From a virus, in the IMG/VR virus record IMGVR_UViG_3300048912_000255, positions 1 through 59,389 of that record: 59,389 nt of DNA, one strand, 5' to 3'. Below are positions 2,554 to 46,535 of the stretch, in pieces. The notes beneath the pieces are model-generated. The model had not been told where the DNA came from, searched no databases, and saw only the letters and a program-made list of their open reading frames with translations. The translations under genes and the position numbers were made by a program. The stretch's first letter is position 1, and each line of letters starts with the position of its first letter.

Positions 2554-2953
2554 TCCAAGTCACCCCCTCGGCATCCAGGACGATCAGCTGGGCCACGACT
2601 CGATCGGTGTGGACCCGGTCATTGGTATGGGGCTCGATTCCCTGCACTCGGTAGAAGGCACCGTTGAGGAAGAACTCGTCCATCCGCTGAATATCAGTAT
2701 TATAGACCCCTACAAGAACGTACGGCAGGGTGGGAACTTCACCGTCGGCCGTCGGGGTCGTGAGGTCAGTGAGCCGGCGCTTGTAGGGAACGAGCCGGAA
2801 GCGCTGGGCGGGCAGTGTCAGGTAGTTACCCTTCACGTACCCGCCCGTCGCCGTCTCGGAGAAGGTAGGCCGGTGCAGCTCGATGCTGTAGGCGTCGGCC
2901 TCGATGAACGCCGCCATGACCTTGCGAAGCTGCTTGACCATGGTCTGGTCCAT
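2546..2953 (-). CDS. Head closure / head-tail joining protein
   Basis: 135-aa ORF coupled to its neighbours (8-nt overlap downstream); position in the neck module. Confidence 0.45.
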   Translation of the reverse strand: MDQTMVKQLRKVMAAFIEADAYSIELHRPTFSETATGGYVKGNYLTLPAQRFRLVPYKRRLTDLTTPTADGEVPTLPYVLVGVYNTDIQRMDEFFLNGAFYRVQGIEPHTNDRVHTDRVVAQLIVLDAEGVTWSG

Positions 2954-2954
2954 C

Positions 2955-3287
2955 TTAGTAGTACCTCCTCCGGATCCTGCCGATGGTGGTTCGACCCTCG
3001 GTGGGGCCGGACCGGGACTTCTCGTAGTGGTTGACCATGTCGAGCGCGTGACCCTGGAGGTCGCTCATGGCCCGAGAGGCATTGCCCTCGGTAACGTCAA
3101 CCAGGTCGGCCGCCCGAGCAGCCTTCCAACGCCAGACGATCGCGGCGGCCCGTTCCACGTTACCGTATGCCTGATCCAGGGCATCCTGGAGCTGAGCATC
3201 GGAGAACTGAGGATCGGTACCGTCGGTCGGTACTGGGTCGTCGACCTCAAGACGAAGTCGATCGATCGGGGTGATGGGCGTGGTCAT
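2955..3287 (-). CDS. Head-tail adaptor (gp6-like) protein
   Basis: 110-aa ORF; its start overlaps the stop of the 3287 gene; first neck-size gene after the capsid genes. Confidence 0.45.
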   Translation of the reverse strand: MTTPITPIDRLRLEVDDPVPTDGTDPQFSDAQLQDALDQAYGNVERAAAIVWRWKAARAADLVDVTEGNASRAMSDLQGHALDMVNHYEKSRSGPTEGRTTIGRIRRRYY

Positions 3288-3604
3288 CAGCCCTCCTGAG
3301 CGTCGCTCTCCTCCAGGCGGGCGATCAGCTCGGCCTTGTTGCCGTCGACCGAGAGCTTACGGGCGGCGAGCTCGGTCCGGAGCTGGTCGTTGGTGAGGGT
3401 GGTGTAGTCCACCTCCTCGACCTCCTCCTCGTCCTCCGGCTCCTCGGCGGCGGCGACCAGGGCCTCGTCGGAGTACCGCGCCTTCCAGGCCTTGCGGATC
3501 CGCGCGTCCTGCCAGTACGGGCTGTTGCTCTGGTACTCGCCGGTCGCACCGTTCCGGAAGACCACGAGCTCCGACAGGATCTCGTCCAGCGGGTTCTTGC
3601 TCAT
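3287..3604 (-). CDS. SAP/HeH-motif protein
   Basis: C-terminal LTNDQLRTELAARKLSVDGNKAELIARL matches the SAP / Rho-N helix-extension-helix pattern; preceded by an acidic run. Confidence 0.6.
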   Translation of the reverse strand: MSKNPLDEILSELVVFRNGATGEYQSNSPYWQDARIRKAWKARYSDEALVAAAEEPEDEEEVEEVDYTTLTNDQLRTELAARKLSVDGNKAELIARLEESDAQEG

Positions 3605-34848: not shown

Positions 34849-37410
34849 TCATACGGAGAGATCTTCGTATGTGGGGTGATTCACTTCAAGCCAGCTGAGA
34901 AGTGCGTCCCGATCGTAGATGATCTCGGGCTGATCGACTTCGTGGGCATCGCCCCAGTACTGCCCAATCTTGAGGTCGGCCACGATCGGGATGTCGAGTA
35001 CCGTACCGAACTTCTTGCGAAGCGGGTTCGGGTCCTCCATGGTGTCCTTGATGATAGGCAGCGCGCGGTGGAGGTGGTCGTTACGGACTTCGAAGTTGAT
35101 GGCGTCGTGGACAAGGCCCAGGCAGTTCGCCTGGATATCCAGTTCGCGGAACTTCTCGTTGATCAGGCACATGGAGAGCAGGGCCATGTCGGAGGCGAAG
35201 CCCTGCACCGGCGAGTTGATCGCCTGCCTCTCTGCTTCGGCCTGGACCCCCTTCTCGGGCGAGTAGATGTCGGGCAGGTGGCGCACTCGCCCGAGGGGTG
35301 ACTGCACTCGCCCATGGTTGCGCACGAGACGTCGCTGACGCTGGTGCCAGGGCTCGAGATCCGGGAAGAGGTCGAAGTAGGCCTTCCGGTAACCCTGGGC
35401 TTCGATCTCGGTGAAGGTCGAGCCGTAGTTGTTAAACGCGGTCTCGATGAACTTGCGCCAGCCCATGCCGTAGAGGAAACCGAAGTTGACCGGCTTGCCG
35501 ACCTTCTTGCGGATCTCCTTGGTGATCTGATTCGCCGGCAGACCCGTGACCGCCATCGCGGTGGTCAGGTGGATGTCCGCGCCCTCCTGGTAAAGCTGAA
35601 TCATGTGGCGCTCGCGGGCGATGAACGCGGCGATCCTCAGCTCGATCTGGGAGTAGTCGGCCTCGACGAAGGTCCAACCAGGTGGTGCACCGAACATGCC
35701 CCTGATGAGGGAGTCACGAGGCACCTGCTGGAGGTTCACCCCGCGCAGGTCGGTGCGTCCCGAGACCTTCTCGGCATCGGCCTTGCCCGAGCTAAGTCGC
35801 CCGGTCACGGTACCGGCCAGCTTGAAGGTGGTGTGGATGCGGTGGTTCTCATCGTACATCTTCTCGTAGGCATTGAAGAACGACGAGAGATTTTTCTGCC
35901 ACCCCACACGGGCGAGCATCAGGTCGATAGCCGGGTGGTGATGGTCCTGCTGGAGGTGAAGGAGGACATCCTCGGCCATGCTCGGGTCACCTGGCGAGCC
36001 GTCGTCCTTCTCCTTGCCTCGTGCCAGCACGGGCAGCTCGAGCCACTCGAAGAGGAACCACTTGGCGAAGAGACTCGCGTTGTAGTTGATCTCGAGGGGC
36101 TTGTTCGTCTTGTGGTGACGGGGCCAGTCCTCGGAGTCGGGGTCGGGGAGGAACTCGCTGAGTTGATCCTCGATCTCCTTGAGCTTGGCCTCGGCGATCG
36201 GCTTGCGTTCCTGCAAGCGGTTCACATCGAGCCAGATGCCCCGTCGTTCGATGTGAACGAGTTCACGGCTTGCCGGCATCAAGAGCTTGGTAAGAATCCG
36301 GGCGAGACGAGGCTGCTCCCTGAGCTCGGCCTTCATCTGATCGCCGATCTGGTATGTACGGTAGGTGTCCTCGAAGTTATACTTGAGAACCTCTTCCAGG
36401 GGGTCGTTGAGCAGGTTCTTGGTGTCGATACCCCAGGGCGCTACCCCCAGCCGAGCCATGGCGTTGGGCTTGAGGGCCTTTGCCACGTTCTCATTGAGGA
36501 GGTGCTGGGCCAGCATGGTGTCGAACGTCTGGAACATGTCCACACCGAAGTGGGTCATCCACCGAGAGTCGAACTTGCCGTTCTGAGCCTCCTGCTTGGG
36601 GATGGCTTCCAGCACATCCTTGAGGTACAGCAGCACCGACTTCCACTTCCGCTGCCAGGGCGACTCGGGGTGGTACAGGCCGATGGCGAAGCCCCAGAGC
36701 TTCTTCTTGCCATTGATCTCGGCGATGCAGGTGCCGGCGAGCGAGATGACCTTGGCTCGAGGGTCGAATTCCCCAAGCGGATTGATCGTGGTCTCGATGT
36801 CGAAGCTGATGTACTGAGTCATGCTCAGCAACTTCTTCAGCTTCTTGAGCCCGGCCATGTCCTCAGGCACGAGGTACTTGGGCAGCCGATCATCCGAAGT
36901 GCGGCCCATGAAGTCGTTGGCGAAGAGGCGCACATCGGCGAGAAAGCCCGGGCGCTGGCCTGGGTTGCGCGAGACGGCGTGAGGGGAGACGGTGGGAATC
37001 ACCTTGTAGGCGCCCTTGTCGATCACCCGCCCGCGATACTTCGTGATACCCGAGTGGCCCGTGGAGGCAAGCAGCCCCTCATTACCGAGTGCCAGGATGT
37101 GACTCGGCTTCACGACGGCGATCTCTCGATCGAGGTGCTGCCGGCAGGCCTTGACGTCGGAGTTACTGGCGTTGGCCTCGAAGTTGCGGCACTTCAGCGC
37201 CGAGGTGTAGTAGACCTTCTTCGGGTCGAGCCCGACGTCGGTCAAGTACTCCTCGAGCTGGTTCTGGTACTTGGTCGAATTCGGCATCTTGCCGATGACC
37301 ATGATGTCGGCATTGCCCGGGCCGGAGCCCATCTCGCAGACATCTTCGGCACCCTTGTACAACTTGCACGAGGTGCAGTCACGGTCAGGGAGAAGGTTCG
37401 GTCCAGGCAT
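34849..37410 (-). CDS. polA: Family A DNA polymerase with 3'-5' exonuclease and an N-terminal family-4 UDG-like domain
   Basis: Exo I FDIETT. Pol motifs DYSQIELRIAAF, RKKVGKPVNFGFLYG, LVHDAINFE. N-terminal CTSCKLY...VIGKMPN...ALKCR...ACRQHL...SPHAVSRNPG. Confidence 0.92.
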   Translation of the reverse strand: MPGPNLLPDRDCTSCKLYKGAEDVCEMGSGPGNADIMVIGKMPNSTKYQNQLEEYLTDVGLDPKKVYYTSALKCRNFEANASNSDVKACRQHLDREIAVVKPSHILALGNEGLLASTGHSGITKYRGRVIDKGAYKVIPTVSPHAVSRNPGQRPGFLADVRLFANDFMGRTSDDRLPKYLVPEDMAGLKKLKKLLSMTQYISFDIETTINPLGEFDPRAKVISLAGTCIAEINGKKKLWGFAIGLYHPESPWQRKWKSVLLYLKDVLEAIPKQEAQNGKFDSRWMTHFGVDMFQTFDTMLAQHLLNENVAKALKPNAMARLGVAPWGIDTKNLLNDPLEEVLKYNFEDTYRTYQIGDQMKAELREQPRLARILTKLLMPASRELVHIERRGIWLDVNRLQERKPIAEAKLKEIEDQLSEFLPDPDSEDWPRHHKTNKPLEINYNASLFAKWFLFEWLELPVLARGKEKDDGSPGDPSMAEDVLLHLQQDHHHPAIDLMLARVGWQKNLSSFFNAYEKMYDENHRIHTTFKLAGTVTGRLSSGKADAEKVSGRTDLRGVNLQQVPRDSLIRGMFGAPPGWTFVEADYSQIELRIAAFIARERHMIQLYQEGADIHLTTAMAVTGLPANQITKEIRKKVGKPVNFGFLYGMGWRKFIETAFNNYGSTFTEIEAQGYRKAYFDLFPDLEPWHQRQRRLVRNHGRVQSPLGRVRHLPDIYSPEKGVQAEAERQAINSPVQGFASDMALLSMCLINEKFRELDIQANCLGLVHDAINFEVRNDHLHRALPIIKDTMEDPNPLRKKFGTVLDIPIVADLKIGQYWGDAHEVDQPEIIYDRDALLSWLEVNHPTYEDLSV

Positions 37411-37609
37411 CCGTCACCTCCTCGGGGAGCTTGTCGAGCCGAGGCTTGGCCCAGGCGAGGATCAGCAACTCGATGGTGTTGAGCGCGTTCTCGACGGCCT
37501 TGGGAGAACCCTTACGGTCGTTGCGGAGGTTCCGGGTGTAAACGAAAAGGGGTCGCCTCAGTAGCTCGATGAGCTGCCGAAGTCCCTGGTGACGATCAAC
37601 CATAGACAT
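37385..37609 (-). CDS. Hypothetical protein (74 aa)
   Basis: ORF track; overlaps both neighbours. Confidence 0.4.
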   Translation of the reverse strand: MSMVDRHQGLRQLIELLRRPLFVYTRNLRNDRKGSPKAVENALNTIELLILAWAKPRLDKLPEEVTDAWTEPSP

Positions 37610-38087
37610 ATTTTACCACCTCCAGACCAGCCTGCTGAAGGAGGCGGAGCCCGCTCTCTTCTCGGTGATCCTCGTAGTAAACCACCCGCTTGATGCCCGC
37701 GTTGAGGATCATACCGGCGCAGTTGAGGCAGGGCATCCTCGTGGTGTGGAGCTCCGCCCCGTCGACTCCCACACCATACTTGGCTGCGTGAATGATGGCG
37801 TTGGCCTCGGCGTGAATGGCTCGGGTGCAGGGGAGGGGAAAGGGGCAACCATTGATGTGCCTGAGCCCCTGCATACGGTCTTGTCGAGGCCAACCCTTCG
37901 GGCAGATACAGCCATGGTCGCAATGAGGCATGCCGGCTGGGGCTCCGTTGTATCCGCTCGACAGTATCCTCCCCTCTCGGCTGATCACGGCGCCGACCTG
38001 GGCCCGGCTGCACGTAGACCGTGCACGCCAGTTGTCGGCACTCTGCATGAGGACCCAGTCACGGGGCGGCCTTTTGAGCTCGTTCAC
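37596..38087 (-). CDS. dCMP deaminase
   Basis: Zinc motifs HAEANAI and PCLNCAGMI; GTG start. Confidence 0.85.
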   Translation of the reverse strand: MNELKRPPRDWVLMQSADNWRARSTCSRAQVGAVISREGRILSSGYNGAPAGMPHCDHGCICPKGWPRQDRMQGLRHINGCPFPLPCTRAIHAEANAIIHAAKYGVGVDGAELHTTRMPCLNCAGMILNAGIKRVVYYEDHREESGLRLLQQAGLEVVKYVYG

Positions 38088-38233
38088 GTCAGTTCCTCCT
38101 CGAGAAGCTCGATGGCCTTCTGCATGCCATCATGGGTCTGGTAGCTGTCGTCGTTCGCTTGGAGCTTAGCGATGAGCTTCTTGATCAGCTCGTTGTTGCG
38201 TTCGTTGGCCTCTTCGAGGTCAAGCTTGTTCAT
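38084..38233 (-). CDS. Small coiled-coil protein (49 aa)
   Basis: Own translation MNKLDLEEANERNNELIKKLIAKLQANDDSYQTHDGMQKAIELLEEELT; ATGA and GTGA overlaps with the neighbouring genes. Confidence 0.35.
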   Translation of the reverse strand: MNKLDLEEANERNNELIKKLIAKLQANDDSYQTHDGMQKAIELLEEELT

Positions 38234-39123
38234 CCCAGTGCCTCACGGAGTCGTACGGACCGCTGAACGTGGTCCTGTCGGCGAAGGTGCTCGACCATGG
38301 CTCGGTCGCCCTCGAAAATGTGGAAGGAGGAGATGTGCATGGTCAGCTCCCCCATCTCGACGGCGATCGGCAGCTCGTCCCGAACCCACTGCCCGAGTCG
38401 GATGGCCATGTAAACATCGTCCCGGAAATGCCGCATGAAGTCGCAGGCTCGGATGTTGTATGTGACGTGGAGCTTACCGTCGCGCACCATGAATAGGTAC
38501 CCCAGCGTACAGGGTACTCGCTCGCCATCGGGTGCCCCGGTATCCTCGGGGAACCAGATCGGCAGGTAAGCCTGCCTGGTCATGGGGTTCTTGGTGAGCC
38601 GGTTGATCACGTCGTCGAGGTCGCCGTATTCGAACCGAATGCCCTGTCGACCCGAGCAGACCTGACGGTAGCCATCATGGCCGTGTCGATCTACTGCCGT
38701 CGGTTGACCCATCTCGTCGAGCATGGTCATGTGGTGGCAGTCGCCGGCATGCTTCGGCCAGAACCGCTCAGGGTAGGTGTGGGAGAACTTCCCGCCCTTG
38801 AGGTGGTCGAGGTGGCCCGCCTGTATGAACGGCCACCACTCGTTGGAAGGCGGCGGGTTGTGAGGCCAACCGCTAACTCGCTCTTGGAAGTGGTCCTCAG
38901 CCCAGGGCAGGTTCGGCGAGATCGTCGATTGCGCCCCTTCAATCGTCTCGGGCATCCCGATGACCAGTGAGCTCTCCCTGAGCTCCCAGGTGACCTTTGA
39001 GCGATCGCCCTTGATGTCGAGGCCCTGCCAGCTGCCGACATCAACGGGCCGGGCGGCCTCTGAGAAGTCCTCGAGAAGCCGCCCGACCATGTCGGCGAAG
39101 GTCATACCTTGATAGACCCTCAC
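38230..39123 (-). CDS. Thymidylate-synthase-fold pyrimidine C5-transferase, closest to the dCMP hydroxymethylase (T4 gp42) pattern
   Basis: TRQAYLPIW, then PCTLGYLFMVRDGKLHVTYNIRACDFMRHFRDD aligns without gaps to the remembered gp42 segment MCTNTVQYLIRDKKINAVVNMRSNDVVFGFRND. Confidence 0.7.
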   Translation of the reverse strand: MRVYQGMTFADMVGRLLEDFSEAARPVDVGSWQGLDIKGDRSKVTWELRESSLVIGMPETIEGAQSTISPNLPWAEDHFQERVSGWPHNPPPSNEWWPFIQAGHLDHLKGGKFSHTYPERFWPKHAGDCHHMTMLDEMGQPTAVDRHGHDGYRQVCSGRQGIRFEYGDLDDVINRLTKNPMTRQAYLPIWFPEDTGAPDGERVPCTLGYLFMVRDGKLHVTYNIRACDFMRHFRDDVYMAIRLGQWVRDELPIAVEMGELTMHISSFHIFEGDRAMVEHLRRQDHVQRSVRLREALG

Positions 39124-39132
39124 GTTGTACTC

Positions 39133-39363
39133 CTACGCGCCGGGGATGCAGAAGATGCAGGTGCAGTCGAGCGGGTGGTACTCGGGATCCGAGGAGTCGT
39201 AGTCGAAGCCCTGCTTGACCTCCTCCTCGGTCAGCGGGCGGCGCTCCTCGCATCGGTGGATGCAGGGCTGGTCGCTACCCGTCGGCCAGGGGGCCGTCGT
39301 TGAGGCATCCGGATCGATTGCCTCCCTGCGCTCCTGGCAGGTGAGCTGCCTCAGCTCAACCAT
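39133..39363 (-). CDS. Hypothetical Cys-containing protein (76 aa)
   Basis: ORF track; ATG at 39363 (GTG at 39369). Confidence 0.4.
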   Translation of the reverse strand: MVELRQLTCQERREAIDPDASTTAPWPTGSDQPCIHRCEERRPLTEEEVKQGFDYDSSDPEYHPLDCTCIFCIPGA

Positions 39364-39493
39364 TTCCACACCCGCAGGGCTCGTCGCCGACCTTGATGCA
39401 GTGGAGCGGGGTGCGGCAGTTCTCGTTGAGCTTGGGCGGCTCGGGGTCGGTGAGCGGGAACTGCTCCACGTAGCCCTCGTTCTCGGGTTCCAT
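39356..39493 (-). CDS. Small hypothetical protein (45 aa from MEPENEGY)
   Basis: TGATG overlap with the upstream stop at 39493. Confidence 0.3.
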   Translation of the reverse strand: MEPENEGYVEQFPLTDPEPPKLNENCRTPLHCIKVGDEPCGCGNG

Positions 39494-39705
39494 CAGACCT
39501 CCTCGTCGGGGCCGTTCACGCAGGCCCTTTGCTTCATGGTAGGACATCCCCCGATGCACTTGCCGTCGGACGAGAAGGGGCAGAATACCCCAGTCTCGTC
39601 GATGGGGTGGTTTCGGCGGTAGGCAGCACGGCGGACCTTGATCTTGGCCCAGACCTTGGCGGCCTCGGCGAGCCGACTCGGGTCGGGCGGGATGTAGTTA
39701 CTCAC
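39493..39705 (-). CDS. Hypothetical Cys-containing protein (70 aa)
   Basis: ORF track. Confidence 0.4.
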   Translation of the reverse strand: MSNYIPPDPSRLAEAAKVWAKIKVRRAAYRRNHPIDETGVFCPFSSDGKCIGGCPTMKQRACVNGPDEEV

Positions 39706-40183
39706 CCTCGACGACCTCGATGCGGAGCTTGACCTTGTCGCCCTCGCCCATCTCCTGGTACATCAGCTCCCACATCTCCTCACGGTCGATGGCGATCATC
39801 TCGTCCACCGTGGGGCTGTCGCCGAAGCCACCCTTCCTGTAGAGCTCGGGCTTCGGCTCGTACTCGTAGGTGGCGACGATGCGGAACTTCAGCGGTCGGT
39901 CGGCGGTCGGCTTCCGCATGTTCTCGATCGGCCCGACCCCATAGAGGCTGGTGAAGGTGTGGGAGTCGAGTCCGGCCCCTCCCGCCCAGTCGTTCTCGGG
40001 GTGACGGTTGTCGCGGACGGAGAACAGGATGTTGGGCGCCACCGCCTCGTCCTCGTTCACCTGGATCTCGTCGATCCTGGCGTAGATGTTGACCTGCTCC
40101 GAGTGTCGGTAGATCTGTCCGACCTTGAGCTGAGCCATGCGGTTGTATCGGCCCATCTCCCGCTTGAACTCATCCTCACCCAT
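39698..40183 (-). CDS. Hypothetical protein (161 aa)
   Basis: ORF track; balanced composition. Confidence 0.55.
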   Translation of the reverse strand: MGEDEFKREMGRYNRMAQLKVGQIYRHSEQVNIYARIDEIQVNEDEAVAPNILFSVRDNRHPENDWAGGAGLDSHTFTSLYGVGPIENMRKPTADRPLKFRIVATYEYEPKPELYRKGGFGDSPTVDEMIAIDREEMWELMYQEMGEGDKVKLRIEVVEGE

Positions 40184-40223
40184 GATTGTCTCCAGTTCTG
40201 TTGGGTGGTTGATCGGGGCCTAC

Positions 40224-41261
40224 TTACTCATCATCGCCATCCTCGTCGTCCTCGTCAAGGCCGGGAACGTAGTCGCCCCCGTACTGCTGCCCGAAGGGCA
40301 TCTTCAGCACCCTGAAGTCCAGGTTCTCGATGGGGGTGCTCGGCAGAGGGTTGTAGGCCTTGAAGAAGTCCTTCTGCTCTCCGGCCTTCTCCCCCTTCTG
40401 GTAGTAGCTCCAACCCTCGAACCGCTTGGCGTGCTCGAACCCGAAGACCTCGGTATGCCAGCGCCGGCGGATGCGACGGTAGGTGTTGTAGGTCATGTCG
40501 CCGTAGGTCAGGCCCTGGGCGTCCTCCTTGCGGACCTTCATCAGCCACTGTCGGGTCATCTTGAGCGCCGGCGTGTTCTGGATCTCGTTGAACTCGTCGT
40601 CGGTCAGCTTGGTCGCGCCGGCGGTCAGCAGTCGACGGTACTTCTTCCGAGCCCAAGGATCCGGGTTGCAGAGCATCCAGGCCATGGACTTGAAGTTGTG
40701 CCACTGGATCGCCTCGTTCGTCCACACGAAGGCGATATCCTTGACGTCGATGCCGAGCTCGTGTGCGAGGTACTTGCCGGCCATCCAGGCGACCGAGAGG
40801 TCCAAGGCACCGATGTAGCCCAGGTAGCTGGTGCGGGAGTGCAGGTGGATCGTCGGCCGGGGCAGAGCCTTGTAGCTGAGGGAGATCATGCAGGAGCCCC
40901 AGCGTCGAGTCTCCTTGTTGCTGTGCCCGGTCGCGGCACCCCCTCGGGGCTTCACGATCTTGGTCCGCATCAGCGCGATGCCCCGACCCTTCACCCCGAT
41001 CTTGCTCGTGCACTGGTCCAGCCAGGCCTGGAGAGCATCGGCGTCGAGGTACTGGTTGACCATCATCGACCACCGCTGAGGGGTGAGCCACAGCGTCTTG
41101 AGGTCGAACTCCCAGTCCATCGAGTCGGCCACGCCGATGACGTCGTGGATCTGAACATCCACGTTGGAGATAACGTCGAGCTCCTCAGCGGGGGCCTCGA
41201 CCAGCGAGAGGATCATCTTGGTGTGGAGGTCCGTCATGGTGGCGGCCTGATACGTGCGCAT
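40224..41261 (-). CDS. Highly divergent thymidylate-synthase-fold paralogue with a C-terminal extension and acidic tail
   Basis: MRTYQ start (paralogue starts MRVYQ). TRRWGSCMISLSY...HLHSRTSYLGYIGALDLSVAWM...DIAFVWTNEAIQWHNF parallels ThyA PCH...[18 protein letters not shown]...DFVWTGGDTHLYSNH. Confidence 0.55.
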   Translation of the reverse strand: MRTYQAATMTDLHTKMILSLVEAPAEELDVISNVDVQIHDVIGVADSMDWEFDLKTLWLTPQRWSMMVNQYLDADALQAWLDQCTSKIGVKGRGIALMRTKIVKPRGGAATGHSNKETRRWGSCMISLSYKALPRPTIHLHSRTSYLGYIGALDLSVAWMAGKYLAHELGIDVKDIAFVWTNEAIQWHNFKSMAWMLCNPDPWARKKYRRLLTAGATKLTDDEFNEIQNTPALKMTRQWLMKVRKEDAQGLTYGDMTYNTYRRIRRRWHTEVFGFEHAKRFEGWSYYQKGEKAGEQKDFFKAYNPLPSTPIENLDFRVLKMPFGQQYGGDYVPGLDEDDEDGDDE

Positions 41262-41264
41262 GGT

Positions 41265-41411
41265 TCACCAGATCTTGTAGAAGATGTGAAGGGTGCCGAC
41301 TATGAGGATCGTGGTGAGGGCGGCACTGAGAACCAGTACCGCCGCCGCCATGATGTCCCATACTGCGCCGGCGACTTCCCGAATCCGCTGGAGACGGGTG
41401 CCGGTGTTCAT
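41265..41411 (-). CDS. Small membrane protein (48 aa)
   Basis: Own translation MNTGTRLQRIREVAGAVWDIMAAAVLVLSAALTTILIVGTLHIFYKIW; AGGAG lies 4 nt before the ATG. Confidence 0.35.
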   Translation of the reverse strand: MNTGTRLQRIREVAGAVWDIMAAAVLVLSAALTTILIVGTLHIFYKIW

Positions 41412-41418
41412 GTAGCTC

Positions 41419-41898
41419 CTAGTAGCCGTTGCCCTGGCGCACCTGGTTCTTCTGGTGCATGCGGAAGTAGGACTCGTAGAGGTCGATGGGGGAGATGCCG
41501 GCCGTGATGCAGAACTCGAAGAAGAAGTGGGCCACGTCGCCGACCTCGTCCACGAAGGCCTTGACGTCGGTCGGGCGCTCGGTCTGCTTCCACGGCTTGT
41601 TCTTGAGCTCCTGCATGGCCTCGCTCACCTCGCGAACGAGGTAGCCGTACAGGTCGTGCAGCCGCTGCTGAACCCTGCGGGAGTCGAGGTCCCCGAGCTC
41701 GTCGGGCTCCAGCACGGTCGCGCCGTTGGCGAGCTCGATGTCGTGGTACTTGTGCATGAGCTCGCGCTGACCGGCGAACATCAGCTCCATCAGGTCACCT
41801 TCCATGTAGGGGAAGGTGCTGATCTGCCGCTCATACCGAGAGGCGGGGACCCCGGTGGTCGAGAGGGCCGGGGACTGATGCTGTGCGGGGACGGTCAT
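41419..41898 (-). CDS. Dimeric all-alpha dUTPase_2-type dNTP pyrophosphatase
   Basis: MELMFAGQRELM...REVSEAMQELKNKPWK...DEVGDVAHFFFEF...YFRMHQKNQVRQGNGY. Alternative start at 41805. Confidence 0.7.
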   Translation of the reverse strand: MTVPAQHQSPALSTTGVPASRYERQISTFPYMEGDLMELMFAGQRELMHKYHDIELANGATVLEPDELGDLDSRRVQQRLHDLYGYLVREVSEAMQELKNKPWKQTERPTDVKAFVDEVGDVAHFFFEFCITAGISPIDLYESYFRMHQKNQVRQGNGY

Positions 41899-42436
41899 AG
41901 GTAAAGCCCTCGTTTCGCTTGTCGAGCTCGCGCTGGAGCCAGCGGAGCATGTCGTCGTACAGGGTGGTCTGGTAGTTGAACAGCCGAGCGTTGCGCTGGC
42001 TGACGTCGATCGCCGCCCGAGCCACATAGCCCGCGTAGATCGCGCCGATCCGGCTCTTTACCGCGGCGTTGTCGGTGTCCTCGCGGTTCACATTCGCCCG
42101 GACCGTCTGGATCGGCGGCAGGCAGTAGATGATGATCGGGTCGCAGGCGTAGAACCTGGCGGTCATCTCCATCATCCATCCAGGGTCACAGAACCGAAGG
42201 TCCTGCCTCGACCGGGTCGCCGGCCCGTAGATGGGCTCCGAGATCAGACGATGGCGATCGAAGATCCGACGCTGGAAGCCGCAGCTGACGTTGTCTTCGG
42301 TCCACTGGGCCAGGTCGGTCATCGGGGTCATGTCGGAACTCACCACCTTGTCGGCGATGGGGATCCCGAGCTCCCTCGAGAGGCGAACGGCAAGCGAGGT
42401 CTTACCCGCGCCATCCGGCCCTTCGAAAATGATCAT
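41831..42436 (-). CDS. Thymidylate-kinase-like dNMP kinase
   Basis: MIIFEGPDGAGKTS P-loop at the in-frame ATG 42436. Confidence 0.75.
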   Translation of the reverse strand: MIIFEGPDGAGKTSLAVRLSRELGIPIADKVVSSDMTPMTDLAQWTEDNVSCGFQRRIFDRHRLISEPIYGPATRSRQDLRFCDPGWMMEMTARFYACDPIIIYCLPPIQTVRANVNREDTDNAAVKSRIGAIYAGYVARAAIDVSQRNARLFNYQTTLYDDMLRWLQRELDKRNEGFTYDRPRTASVPGPLDHRGPRLSV

Positions 42437-42680: not shown

Positions 42681-44171
42681 TCATTCTCGCAGGAGAAGCC
42701 GCTCAGGGGATGCCATGATTGCCTGGGCGACTTCCCCGTCTCCCTGCAGTGTTTCGTAGAGCAACTCATCCACCGTACCGTGCGCGATCAAGTACATGAA
42801 GATGGTGCTACGCTTTGACAGGGCGATCCGATCCTCGAACTGCGTGAAGCTAACGTAGCTCGGGGTCATGGAGAACCAGATGCAGATCGATGCCGAGCTA
42901 AGGTCGATACCCTCGGCGGCAGCCTGGGGCTGAGCGATGAAGCATGAGGGCCCGGGCCGCTCACGGAAGAGTCGGATGCTCTCGTCGCGATCTCGGCGCT
43001 TCACCCCGCCCCTTACGACATATGCGGGTACCTTGAGCTCCTCGCACATCCGTGCGATCGCTGCGATATCGCCAACGAATTGGGCACCCACGACCACCTT
43101 CTCATCCGCCTCAAAGAGGTCGGAGAGGAGATCTTTCATGACCTCGAGCTTTTCGTATCCCACACGAACGAGGCGGCCCTCGGGATACTGCTCGGTGGGC
43201 TCAGTTTTGGCGATGCCCGAGGTGATCTGACGAAGCCGAAGCGTCTGTACCAGGGCGATGGATGCCACCGTGATCTCGCCGGTCTGGATGCGAGCCACCA
43301 TCTCCTTCGCCATCTGCTCATAGTACGGGGCAGACTCGTGGAGCTTCACCGGGATTATCTGCTCTCGCCGAGGCGGCAGGTCGTAGCATTCCTCGCGACT
43401 GATGGCGAAGGCATCCTGATGGATCTGAGCGTGTAGATCATCCTCATTGATGTTCCTCAGCCACTGGGGGAAGCCGTTCCGAGTCGTCCACTGTCCATAG
43501 GTTTCCTTGAACGTGGTGAACGTCATGTTGAAGCGACTGGGGTTGAGAAACTTCCACTGAGAGTAGACGTCGAAGATCCGCTTCTTCTTCGTCACCACGG
43601 TACCGGTCATGATGACCCGGTACTCCGCCACCTTGCCCAGCTTGTGTAGCATCCTCGACTTAACCGCGGACGAAGACTTGATGCGGTGGGATTCGTCCAG
43701 GGCGATCAGGTTCGGCTGCCACCGAGCCAACGCCTTGAAAATGTCGAACCTGCCACCCCTTCGCTTGGATCGCAGCTTGTTGCCGTACTCGTCACTCTTG
43801 ATCACCGCCCCCGGTGTGGAGAGGGCATCGTAGTTGATGATCACGAAGTCCAGGGTGTCCTTGGCCGAATACTTCGGCAACTCGGCTCCCTGCTTACGCG
43901 ACTCCTTATCCCATGTTACGATACGGTAGGCGTGGGGGCAGTGCTGAGCGATCTGAGCCTCCCACACCCCGATGACGCCGAGGGGGCAGAAGATGAGGAC
44001 TCGCTTGATCTTGCCCGCCGAGTAGAGCGCGCCGGCATAGTCGATCAGGGTCTTGGTCTTGCCCGTGCGGGGAGCCATCAGGAGAGCTCCGCCGAACCCC
44101 GTCGACAACAGCTTCTTGATGGCCATGACCTGGTACCGGTAAGGCGTGGTCTTGAACTTGTACTTCGCCAT
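42681..44171 (-). CDS. SNF2-family helicase
   Basis: Motif I LLMAPRTGKTKT, motif II LDESHRIKS, and a C-terminal helicase domain. Start taken at MAKYKFK. Confidence 0.85.
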   Translation of the reverse strand: MAKYKFKTTPYRYQVMAIKKLLSTGFGGALLMAPRTGKTKTLIDYAGALYSAGKIKRVLIFCPLGVIGVWEAQIAQHCPHAYRIVTWDKESRKQGAELPKYSAKDTLDFVIINYDALSTPGAVIKSDEYGNKLRSKRRGGRFDIFKALARWQPNLIALDESHRIKSSSAVKSRMLHKLGKVAEYRVIMTGTVVTKKKRIFDVYSQWKFLNPSRFNMTFTTFKETYGQWTTRNGFPQWLRNINEDDLHAQIHQDAFAISREECYDLPPRREQIIPVKLHESAPYYEQMAKEMVARIQTGEITVASIALVQTLRLRQITSGIAKTEPTEQYPEGRLVRVGYEKLEVMKDLLSDLFEADEKVVVGAQFVGDIAAIARMCEELKVPAYVVRGGVKRRDRDESIRLFRERPGPSCFIAQPQAAAEGIDLSSASICIWFSMTPSYVSFTQFEDRIALSKRSTIFMYLIAHGTVDELLYETLQGDGEVAQAIMASPERLLLRE

Positions 44172-44266
44172 GGTTCCCTTCTTGCGTCCGTACCAGTTAC
44201 GGCCCACCACATACCGACCAGTATATCGGTGGTGTTTGACCCTGTCAGGTACGAAGAAGTCTTCGG

Positions 44267-45803: not shown

Positions 45804-45869
45804 TGCCTCATCACCGAACGCCCCGCCAGGGCATTGCCGATATCCACACCAAGCGAAGGATTTGCCATC

Positions 45870-46535
45870 ATGGCTGCCACCACCCGCCGCACCCCGAAGA
45901 AGACGACCGCGACCAAGGCCAAGCCGGCGCCGACCCCCGAGGTCGAGGAGGACGAGCTGGAGGACCTGGTCGAGGCCGACGGCGACGGCGACATCGAGGA
46001 GGACCTGGAGGCCGACGAGCTCGAGGAGCTCGAGGAGGACGAGGTCGAGGAGTCCAAGCCCGCCGGCAAGAAGAAGTCCGCCGGTCGTGACGCCGGCATC
46101 ACCTTCGGTATCCGCGACCTCTGCGACCACATCAAGGCCGTCACCGGCAACGAGACCGACCCCCGCGCCATCCGCACCCTGATCCGCAAGATGGCCCGCG
46201 ACGAGTCCGGCCGAGTCAACCGCGAGATCAAGGCCGGCAACCGCGAGCGCTACAACTGGACCGGCCCGACCGACCCCGAGGTCGTCGCCATCGTCGCCGC
46301 CTTCAAGGGCGGGGAGCTCGAGGCCGAGAAGCAGGCCAAGCTCGCCAAGCTGAAGGCCGACAAGGCCGCGAAGGCCGCCGCCAAGAAGGCCGAGGAGGCC
46401 GACGAGGTCGAGACCGACGAGGCCGACGCCCCGGCCCCGAAGGCCCGCGCCAAGAAGACGACCCGCCGCGCGGCGAAGCCGGTCGAGGTCGAGGAGGTCG
46501 AGGACGACGAGGAGCTCGACTTCGACGAGGAGTAA
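45870..46535 (+). CDS. Paralogue family member 3 (221 aa from MAATTRR): basic/acidic N-terminal region, conserved domain, Lys/Ala helix, acidic tail
   Basis: ITFGIRDLCDHIKAVTGNETDPRAIRTLIRKMARDESGRVNREIKAGNRERYNWTGPTDPEVVAIVAAFK. Confidence 0.6.
   Translation: MAATTRRTPKKTTATKAKPAPTPEVEEDELEDLVEADGDGDIEEDLEADELEELEEDEVEESKPAGKKKSAGRDAGITFGIRDLCDHIKAVTGNETDPRAIRTLIRKMARDESGRVNREIKAGNRERYNWTGPTDPEVVAIVAAFKGGELEAEKQAKLAKLKADKAAKAAAKKAEEADEVETDEADAPAPKARAKKTTRRAAKPVEVEEVEDDEELDFDEE

Follow-up and report, generated by a model that had tools for sequence, protein, structure and literature searches.

A diverged thymidylate-synthase-fold protein family of phages, encoded beside a cytosine-type thymidylate synthase homologue

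Why does a phage maintain, close to a recognizable thymidylate synthase (TS) homologue, a second and far more diverged protein of the same fold, and what could this second protein do? The question is raised by a viral DNA of 59,389 nucleotides (IMG/VR record IMGVR_UViG_3300048912_000255, positions 1 to 59,389; hereafter the window), in which an open reading frame (ORF) of 345 amino acids plus stop codon occupies positions 40224..41261 of the minus strand, the strand being a point on which the original prediction, made from this DNA, had been silent. The ORF is a real gene, because the G+C content at its third codon positions is 0.90 (62% G+C for the whole genome) and because 925 homologues of its product are found at E ≤ 1e-3 in a large protein collection; coding signature and conservation together rule out a chance ORF. 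The product begins with MRTYQ and terminates with DEDDEDGDDE, as had been read, and is a diverged TS-fold protein belonging to PHROG 13667 (E 2e-107; residues 1–321 against positions 1–295 of the 297 of the profile), a family labelled “unknown function” and devoid of any annotated function. Nothing was found for it among the models of Pfam, NCBIfam or PADLOC, the PDB sequences gave 0 matches by single sequence and by profile, and the Pfam TS model (PF00303) at E ≤ 1 matched neither this protein nor any of 61 diverse family members; its placement outside any named family was thus upheld, PHROG 13667 being the only model matched. The neighbouring TS homologue, a protein of 297 amino acids encoded at 38230..39123 of the minus strand, is referred to below by the working name TS#1.

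The TS fold attributed to the 345-residue protein was borne out by modelling. An AlphaFold2 model built with a 38-sequence alignment as input reached a mean predicted local distance difference test (pLDDT) score of 91.3 and a predicted template-modelling score of 0.88, a loop at residues 109–118 and the acidic tail being the only parts to appear disordered. When this model was compared with the PDB by Foldseek, 503 matches were returned, 22 of them at E ≤ 1e-3, and all 50 matches listed, with probabilities of 0.98–1.00, are chains of the TS superfamily or 4f2v, a designed protein based on E. coli ThyA. The top match is 9iqu (E 2.3e-7, template-modelling (TM) score 0.56 normalised to the target), and the ranking by E-value comprises AfhB (9iqu, 9iqc), MilA, the deoxycytidine monophosphate (dCMP) hydroxymethylase (dCH) of T4 and ThyA of many species, the alignments with TS, dCH and AfhB extending over about 225–250 columns. 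In BFVD, where two uncharacterised phage proteins rank first, the places after them go to TS or gp42 entries and to the PMBT14 protein A0A2I6PI74, so that, uncharacterised proteins aside, the named top matches are TS or gp42. In a calibration, the model of TS#1 (pLDDT 77) shared the top four PDB entries at E about 1e-10 (best 1.7e-10) with a TM score of 0.56 normalised to the query; the AfhB ranking is therefore not specific to the 345-residue protein, which has the TS fold but is clearly more diverged than TS#1. On the strength of the predicted structure, we assign the protein to the TS/dCMP hydroxymethylase fold superfamily, in which its gene family (PHROG 13667, with PHROG 34294 as a sister) is a new and widespread one.

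The correspondence with ThyA can be specified for the central part of the protein. Two profile–profile alignments obtained with hhalign, one of the family against its TS neighbours plus E. coli ThyA (reference sequence identical to PDB entry 1aob; E 7.6e-4) and one of A3 versus A2 (E 1.1e-3), yield the identical register twice and agree with the TS-like core originally proposed. The confident block spans residues 121–190, in which the stretch from W121-G-S-C124 to Q186-W-H188 is collinear with L143-A-P-C146 to H207-L-Y209 of ThyA and the successive distances between the Cys, Arg, Asp, Trp and Gln positions resemble those of ThyA (19 vs 20, 11 vs 11, 26 vs 24 and 6 vs 6 residues). In this register Cys124 is aligned to C146 of ThyA and to C205 of TS#1, while S142, R143 and T144 correspond to Q165, R166 and S167, Y146 to D169, D154 to N177, the F178-VWT segment to F199-VWT (F199–T202), and Q186 to H207. 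The three substitutions noticed at the outset are thereby recovered, since the Asp of the RSCD motif becomes Tyr146, the His of DTHLY becomes Gln186 and the Asn177 equivalent is Asp154; further changes affect Leu172 (Tyr), Leu143 (Trp) and His147 (Met).

The N-terminal half aligns with ThyA at low confidence, the invariant Y71 together with W58/W64 and D53 being candidates for the equivalents of E58/W80/W83/Y94. In this region one detail of the original prediction became doubtful, namely the near-deletion of the segment between an Arg pair and the catalytic Cys: to equate R119-R120 with R126/R127 of ThyA, and to deduce a deletion from this equation, is probably wrong. The two residues are part of a family motif, [H/R][R/K]-W-G-x-C, that lies immediately before the Cys, and the R126/R127 equivalent is placed instead at K92-R93-G94, ahead of strand 95–99, from where a loop of normal length leads to Cys124. 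This placement derives from the order of the secondary-structure elements in both AlphaFold models and from a low-confidence part of the hhalign alignment, and the candidate segment is only about 50% conserved.

How strictly the presumptive active site is maintained can be judged from 117 full-length representatives, no more than 50% identical to each other, of the 247 clusters (at 50% identity) into which an exhaustive profile search resolves the family. Tyr71, Gly122, Cys124 and Arg143 are invariant (117/117). Cys124 (codon 40890..40892, minus strand like all the features of this gene), the putative nucleophile within the motif W121-G122-S123-C124, takes the position of ThyA Cys146, and Arg143, in the Ser142-Arg143 pair (40833..40838), that of the phosphate-binding Arg166. 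Asp154 (40800..40802), located 11 residues after this Arg as in ThyA, occupies the Asn177 position and is conserved in 113 of the 117 representatives (96%), the other four having Glu, so that the Asn expected of ThyA proper is missing. Ser142 and W180 are present in 115 (98%), and Arg63, at the beginning of a stretch (41049..41075; helix 61–71 in the model) that runs to Tyr71, in 112 (95%), with R263, D53 and R267 following at 105/117 (89%), 87% and 81/117. At the position of Asp169, Tyr146 (40824..40826) is Tyr in 86 and Phe in 11 representatives (83% for the two), and Asn is not among the four commonest residues; Trp121, at the Leu143 position, is found in 95 (81%), and in the strand “FVWT..Q.H” (W180 to Q186-W187-H188; 40698..40724), the counterpart of ThyA F199-VWT...H207-L-Y209, Gln186 at the His207 position and H188 are found in 90 (77%) and 82, respectively. 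The TS-like α/β core that contains these elements, as delimited by the order of secondary structures, Foldseek and the hhalign block, corresponds to residues 1–200 (40662..41261).

These residues can be compared with the signatures of known branches of the superfamily. The protein has the TS fold, a Cys at the C146 position and an Arg 19 residues after it, and no match to a sequence model of the superfamily. In TS enzymes the change N177D marks specificity for cytosine nucleotides (PMC13326640; bioRxiv 10.1101/2024.12.05.627091); dCMP hydroxymethylases of the gp42/MilA type have, besides N177D, an acidic residue in place of Leu143, and 5-hydroxy-dCMP synthases of the RB69 gp48/AfhB type display D169N and L143E, the Asp169 position being a pterin contact in ThyA and Asn in these synthases (PMC13326640). 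The 345-residue family shows half of the hydroxymethylase signature, that is N177D, with Trp and not an acidic residue at position 143, and has Tyr or Phe where the hydroxylase should have Asn; because both signatures are missing, the product of the putative enzyme cannot be named from its sequence. The contention that the protein is not a standard dUMP (deoxyuridine monophosphate) methylase holds, given the Asp at N177, the Tyr at D169, the Gln at H207 and the failure of 61 members to match PF00303. Another suggestion of the original prediction, that of a non-catalytic partner, appears unlikely in view of the 100% conservation of Cys124, Arg143, Gly122 and Tyr71 and the 96% conservation of Asp154. 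Indeed, the Cys, the Arg, the Asp and Tyr71 are retained also in the very distant sister group PHROG 34294, and since nucleophile, phosphate-binding Arg and base-reading acid persist across such divergence, a pseudo-enzyme is disfavored and the conservation patterns argue strongly for an active site that would bind a pyrimidine nucleotide.

Beyond the core, the protein is about 100 residues longer than ThyA, close to the approximately 110 extra residues initially counted; most of this extension is predicted with confidence to be helical and only residues 331–345 are disordered. Residues 201–330 (40272..40661; pLDDT above 90) form a conserved, mostly helical C-terminal module that bears the Arg-rich motif Y258-x-x-x-R-R263-x-R-R-R267, followed by two strands, and that includes a clade-specific insert at residues 283–303. 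The acidic tail (residues 331–345, 40227..40271; pLDDT 48–60) ending with DEDDEDGDDE, which lowers the isoelectric point of the protein from 9.1 to 6.5, is found in the close clade and not in members of the Muddy and GTE2 type; it is a clade-specific acquisition and does not define the family. An acidic C-terminus, DPDEEGED, is found likewise in the sister-family protein that occupies this operon slot in Desulfofustis phage LS06-2018-MD02 (gp51; 2766-3584 of locus L074), which suggests that such tails were acquired more than once and are convergent.

The identity of the partner is central to any functional interpretation. TS#1 is matched by PF00303 (E 1.8e-7), and the alignment of its C-terminal half with E. 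coli ThyA equates C205 of its R-V-P-C205 motif with C146, R225 with R166, D228 with D169, D236 with N177 and H268 with H207; its best matches among PDB sequences are MilA (E 6e-7) and the dCMP hydroxylase 9iqc. All the partner TS proteins examined share an Arg at position −3 from the Cys and an Asp at the N177 position, and the equivalent of ThyA R127 in TS#1 is Gln. That TS#1 begins with MRVYQ is corroborated by a GTG start codon preceded at 7 nucleotides by AGGAG and by the conservation of this N-terminus in homologues; the JGI gene call starts at Met7. The Pfam model covers only residues 166–286, and at residues 87–125, predicted by AlphaFold at pLDDT below 50, an almost invariant sequence, NPPPS..WWPF..FSHTYPERFWP, stands in place of the canonical folate-binding N-terminal region of ThyA. 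In a 407-residue TS#1 homologue from a metagenomic contig (P0407), an insert of ~110 residues with the LAGLIDADG-like motif LAAMVDGDGSI interrupts the GH.DH...FSHTYPERFWP region and probably represents either an intein or a homing endonuclease. The paralogy of the two proteins encoded in the window, suggested by the similarity of their first residues, stands at the level of the fold and of deep profiles; it finds no support in direct comparison, BLASTP giving an insignificant E of 0.59 and hhalign of the close-family profiles no match at all.

The surroundings of the gene are strikingly constant. In 65 loci, consisting of 63 IMG/VR contigs and of phages Shrew and Muddy, the same-strand order SNF2-type helicase, deoxynucleoside monophosphate (dNMP) kinase, nucleoside triphosphate (NTP) pyrophosphatase, 345-residue-family gene, TS#1, dCMP-family deaminase and DNA polymerase I is observed without exception (65/65), with TS#1 present in 64, the kinase in 62 and the deaminase and the polymerase in 60 each, the gaps occurring mostly at contig ends; the genes often overlap by 1–4 nucleotides. 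Five remote members, 20–28% identical to the window protein, were also examined: where the contig is long enough, the family gene is followed by a TS and then by a deaminase and/or a polymerase I (PolA) fused to a uracil-DNA glycosylase (UDG) domain, and of the two contigs that end soon after the family gene one has dUTPase_2 just upstream and the other replication genes. Thus, in the loci surveyed, linkage of the gene to a TS of the cytosine type, i.e., with the N177D signature, is tight, as had been anticipated. The deposited phages that carry the family are 85 actinophages, in every record of which it is annotated as a hypothetical protein: 68 are Gordonia phages, including GTE2 and the CT-cluster phage Azira, nine are Mycobacterium phages (among them Muddy, as gp47, FF47 and the Maco phages), and the rest are four Streptomyces records (Zuko and KimJongPhill, each deposited twice), two Microbacterium, one Curtobacterium and one Mycobacteroides. 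Searches by tblastn with the remote members retrieved the same 85 actinophages only and no named phages of non-actinobacterial hosts.

The reverse survey, in which 80 TS#1-type loci were sampled from the at least 569 existing in IMG/VR and 6 kb were inspected on each side, revealed that the association is not reciprocal. When a deaminase and PolA are adjacent, the 345-residue-family gene or its sister lies directly upstream of the TS in 56 of 57 cases, the single exception being cut off at the contig end, and in the 23 loci of other context no family gene occurs within 6 kb, the TS active-site signature being identical with and without it. Hence the gene is never found without a TS of the TS#1 type, and a TS of this type can occur without the gene. 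Two larger viral contigs exemplify stand-alone TS proteins having R-x-P-C and Asp at N177: one is encoded beside a trimeric dUTPase, a ribonucleotide reductase and a family-B polymerase (L144, 5971-6720), the other beside FkbM/CmcI-type methyltransferases (L126, 5929-6705). IMGVR_UViG_3300006737_000017 is one of the records with such a stand-alone TS gene. An obligate heterodimer required by the TS was rejected on account of the occurrence of the same TS type without a 345-residue-family gene nearby.

Outside the actinophages, the link was found via the partner TS and via Foldseek. Full-length TS#1 homologues are encoded by Pseudomonas phage PMBT14, Serratia phage Serbin, Yersinia phage P744, a Desulfofustis phage and Clostridium perfringens phages, and each of these fills the corresponding slot, flanked by the pyrophosphatase and the TS genes, with a hypothetical protein of 250–280 residues that belongs to PHROG 34294, a family labelled as of unknown function and without Pfam match, whose members include PMBT14 gp48, Serbin gp51, WAB24154 of Clostridium phage C2 and P744 ORF027. 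Compared with the hidden Markov model of the 345-residue family, the Clostridium protein reaches 53 bits and the other sister proteins score weakly, and PMBT14 gp48 is a direct Foldseek match of the 345-residue protein (BFVD, E 3e-7). All retain the equivalents of Tyr71, Cys, Arg143 and Asp154, with the Gly of G-x-C replaced in the Desulfofustis protein only. Like the 345-residue family, PHROG 34294 is uncharacterised and resides between the dUTPase/MazG gene and the TS; unlike it, PHROG 34294 has Glu instead of Tyr/Phe at the Asp169 position, Tyr instead of Ser before Arg143 and Lys in place of Arg63. Two GenBank records, that of P744 ORF027 being one of them, name the sister protein “pyrimidine hmase synthase”, a label that amounts to an independent, annotation-level recognition of its relationship with TS.

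The reading favored here, with moderate confidence, is that the 345-residue protein is an active enzyme acting on C5 of a cytosine nucleotide by means of a remodelled cofactor pocket and that it works with, or downstream of, TS#1. Catalysis, substrate and a serial or physical coupling of the two proteins are what we infer, and they may be envisaged as follows. Arg143, probably together with Arg63, the [H/R]119-[R/K]120 motif and Arg263, would bind the phosphate of a cytosine deoxynucleoside monophosphate whose N3/N4 edge would be read by Asp154; addition of the Cys124 thiolate to C6 would then activate C5 for an electrophilic substitution, after which the C5 proton could be taken by Tyr71 or by an ordered water and the enzyme freed by β-elimination. 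With its rebuilt cofactor pocket and its Arg-rich helical module, the protein may employ a one-carbon donor or cofactor, and hence form a product, different from those of ThyA or T4 gp42. The protein would be an accessory of one specific type of TS homologue (R-x-P-C, with Asp at N177) and would most likely draw, ahead of replication, on the dCMP-derived nucleotide pool that TS#1 uses, either taking the product of the latter or working in a complex with it; indeed, because the gene requires a neighbouring TS, the protein probably acts on the TS#1 product or together with TS#1 itself. As to the alternative target once put forward, a base within DNA, nothing in the analysis points to it. Taken as a whole, the original prediction holds as far as the TS fold, the non-standard character, the lack of a named family and the linkage to a TS are concerned, whereas the non-catalytic partner is unlikely, the mapping of the Arg pair is probably wrong and the DNA base lacks support.

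A number of considerations weigh against this reading. At the sequence level the homology with TS is weak (hhalign probability 20–25%, E about 1e-3, and none with Pfam, NCBIfam or PDB sequences); Asp169 and His207 of ThyA are replaced, and the residues involved in folate binding or serving as catalytic base in ThyA (E58, W80, W83 and Y94) cannot be mapped on the N-terminal half, so that the chemistry of the protein may be incomplete. That the conserved residues cluster in space is an assumption drawn from the ThyA register, and the N177D rule stems from work on canonical TS enzymes (PMC13326640) and may not transfer to this family. A point in favor of the reading comes from the literature (bioRxiv 10.1101/2024.12.05.627091): neighbourhoods that unite a TS bearing N177D with a dCMP-deaminase-family gene, PRA-PH/MazG and PolA mark phages with C5-modified cytosine and show a strong enrichment in contigs of phages with modified cytosine, where thymidine nucleotides can be formed by the deaminase out of 5-methyl-dC nucleotides. 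Against the reading, a reported 5-methylcytosine (5mC) phage, PaMx74, encodes at 39165-42126 of locus L156 a MazG-like pyrophosphatase, a canonical TS with N177D, a dCMP deaminase and a dihydrofolate reductase. PaMx74 therefore has the pyrophosphatase, TS and deaminase trio but no member of the 345-residue family, which means that the gene is not needed for simple 5mC synthesis, and a requirement for it in this synthesis was accordingly rejected. No dihydrofolate reductase was noticed among the window genes scanned. Finally, a search of the literature returned no evidence of DNA modification in Muddy, GTE2, Triscuit, PMBT14 or Serbin, and no experimental work on the family or on the DNA composition of the phages that carry it, P744 included.

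Several other explanations have to be set against these data. The gene set of the module corresponds one for one to that of T4 (kinase, NTP pyrophosphatase, two TS-fold proteins, dCMP deaminase), and this invites a parallel pathway in which the 345-residue protein would act independently, in the manner of gp42, as a dCMP C5-(hydroxy)methylase making the nucleotide that takes the place of dC in the phage DNA, with TS#1 and the deaminase supplying thymidylate and with the pyrophosphatase and the kinase in the roles of gp56 and gp1, respectively. The Asp at the N177 position, the conserved Cys and the “hmase” annotation of the sister group in some GenBank records would fit this scheme; on the other hand, TS#1 too has Asp at N177 and is thus no obvious dUMP methylase, the equivalents of Asp169 and Leu143 are Tyr and Trp rather than the Asp/Glu typical of hydroxymethylases, and a strict one-way dependency on one type of TS is not what independent functions would predict. 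We regard this parallel pathway as unlikely. TS enzymes are obligate dimers whose active-site arginines are shared across the interface, and it is conceivable, albeit quite improbable, that the protein forms a heteromer with TS#1, whose activity it would modulate or complete while performing little or no chemistry of its own. The invariable adjacency of the two genes in a fixed order, frequently with stop/start overlap, the invariant and poorly modelled residues 87–125 of TS#1, which could fold onto a partner, and the Gln that TS#1 has in place of R127 would all suit such a subunit. Still, in 23 of the 80 loci the same type of TS, with identical active-site signature, does without a family gene nearby, the fact that Cys, Arg and Tyr71 never vary (and that Asp is kept in 96%, otherwise Glu) argues for an active site of the protein's own, and no Rosetta-stone fusion of the two TS-fold proteins exists among 442 retrieved sequences, in which P0407 is the only over-long TS homologue.

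Two further possibilities have less to recommend them. The protein could be a decoy or inhibitor of the host TS, or some other nucleotide-binding or regulatory pseudo-enzyme, as might be thought from a TS fold in which several canonical catalytic and cofactor residues are replaced and from the disordered acidic tail of one clade, which might mediate protein–protein contacts. This is very improbable, considering that the nucleophile and the phosphate-binding Arg are invariant across phages of Mycobacterium, Clostridium and Pseudomonas hosts, that the interface strands have no detectable sequence similarity to ThyA and that the gene is dependent on the TS encoded by the phage itself and not on the type of host. 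Even harder to credit is a flavin-dependent 5-hydroxy-dCMP synthase like HY126 AfhB or RB69 gp48. The best structural matches in the PDB (9iqu/9iqc, a dCMP hydroxylase with dCMP and FAD (flavin adenine dinucleotide)), the Asp at N177 and an aromatic-rich pocket speak in its favor, but 9iqu/9iqc are among the top matches of TS#1 as well and their ranking is not specific, sequence similarity to either entry is lacking, the diagnostic D169N and L143E are missing (Tyr/Phe and Trp being found instead), and no glycosyltransferase occurs among the replication-module genes scanned in a window that was scanned in part only.

A specific form of cooperation of the protein with TS#1 can also be imagined, which we put forward as a speculative and rather doubtful proposal, namely that the two adjacent TS-fold proteins constitute a two-step or heteromeric system making a not-yet-described cytosine derivative. 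TS#1 would make 5-hydroxymethyl- or 5-methyl-dCMP, Cys124 of the second protein would attack again C6 of this product, regenerating an exocyclic-methylene (or dihydro) intermediate, and a non-folate partner accommodated in the aromatic-rich, Arg-flanked pocket would divert this intermediate towards a different 5-substituent or towards a Cys-assisted deamination. Were this true, phages like Muddy, GTE2, Triscuit, PMBT14 and Serbin would possess either a DNA base that has gone unrecognised or a novel route to thymidylate. In more general terms, the phages carrying the family, Muddy included, probably carry out a pyrimidine chemistry that has not been described. Nearly all the known pyrimidine modifications of phages, namely 5mC, 5-hydroxymethylcytosine, 5-hydroxymethyluracil and, since 2025–26, 5-hydroxycytosine, begin with a TS-fold enzyme, and each new branch of this fold has yielded new DNA chemistry, anti-restriction biology and enzymes for sequencing and biotechnology. 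The present family escapes Pfam-based screens, its members being annotated as hypothetical, and to know its product would show whether the phages carrying it have modified DNA, with what this entails for sensitivity to restriction and defence, for sequencing and for engineering; Muddy is a phage of compassionate-use therapy against Mycobacterium abscessus.

The other genes of the replication module in the window, all on the minus strand, conform to the order described above. The upstream boundary of the conserved module is an SNF2-type helicase (42681..44210; recognised by Pfam and present in 63 of the 65 loci), followed by a P-loop (d)NMP kinase of the thymidylate-kinase type (41831..42436; PHROG 761), which starts probably at Met40 of a longer ORF, the P-loop Pfam matches beginning at residue 40, and by an all-α NTP pyrophosphohydrolase (dUTPase_2/MazG-like; 41419..41805; PF08761, PHROG 12184) whose start is probably Met75 of its long ORF. 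Between the latter and the 345-residue gene, a strongly hydrophobic ORF of 48 residues (…AAAVLVLSAALTTILIVGTLHIFYKIW; 41265-41411, minus strand) stops 3 nucleotides before the start codon of the gene and may encode a small membrane protein translationally coupled to it. Downstream, an insertion of ~1.1 kb (39133-40183, minus strand) separates the gene from that of TS#1, the two being much closer in most relatives, where they often abut or overlap; it holds an ORF of 161 residues (39698-40183) without any family match, present in 2 of the 65 related loci, and small Cys-rich ORFs of 78, 67 and 70 residues. Beyond TS#1 lies the dCMP-deaminase-family enzyme (37596..38087; PF00383, E 2e-21), which is matched also by Muddy gp45 (locus L002, 9667-10209; phmmer E 7e-33), a protein annotated as “hypothetical protein”. 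Next in the order is a DNA polymerase I (34849..37410; PF00476, PF01612) in which a uracil-DNA glycosylase domain (PF03167, E 8.7e-15) is placed at the N-terminus, before the 3′–5′ exonuclease and polymerase domains, and the same UDG–PolA fusion is seen downstream of the TS genes at the remote loci L066 and L069. Divergent from the replication module, a plus-strand gene (45834-46535) encodes a protein of 233 residues with a very high content of Glu, Asp, Lys and Ala, which ends with DDEELDFDEE and has no Pfam match.

Compared with the enzymes of known function, the 345-residue protein resembles each in part. With T4 gp42 (PDB 1b5d, 6a9a) it shares the α/β TS fold (Foldseek E 5e-5 to 4e-4), the Cys nucleophile with the following Arg at the same spacing, an Asp at the base-discriminating position (D179 in T4, N177 in ThyA) and the setting of a phage-encoded nucleotide operon with kinase, NTP pyrophosphatase and deaminase; it differs from gp42 in that sequence similarity is undetectable, in having Trp at Leu143 (not Asp/Glu), Tyr at Asp169 and Gln at His207, in its additional conserved C-terminal helical module of ~100 residues and in accompanying a second TS homologue. 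The 5-hydroxy-dCMP synthases HY126 AfhB and RB69 gp48 (9iqu, 9iqc; PMC13326640), which act on dCMP, have a similarly compact TS fold and N177D, whereas their diagnostic D169N and L143E are not found in the 345-residue protein and TS#1 matches 9iqu/9iqc even better. The CMP 5-hydroxymethylase MilA (5jnh, 5b6d), likewise a top Foldseek match, has the TS fold, a C-terminal extension and an Asp at N177, but its sequence-level similarity is with TS#1 (E 6e-7) and not with the 345-residue protein, and it has Asp at both L143 and D169. E. coli ThyA is collinear with the protein from the Cys strand to the “FVWT..H” strand, the FVWT tetrapeptide being identical, and differs from it at N177 (Asp), D169 (Tyr), H207 (Gln) and H147 (Met). 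The dCMP methyltransferases of 5mC phages, that is the ThyA homologues of Xp12 and PaMx74, offer a parallel of arrangement, consisting of a TS homologue with N177D beside a MazG-like pyrophosphatase and a dCMP-family deaminase; unlike the 345-residue protein, however, the TS of PaMx74 is a canonical one, sharing 30% identity with E. coli ThyA along its whole length.

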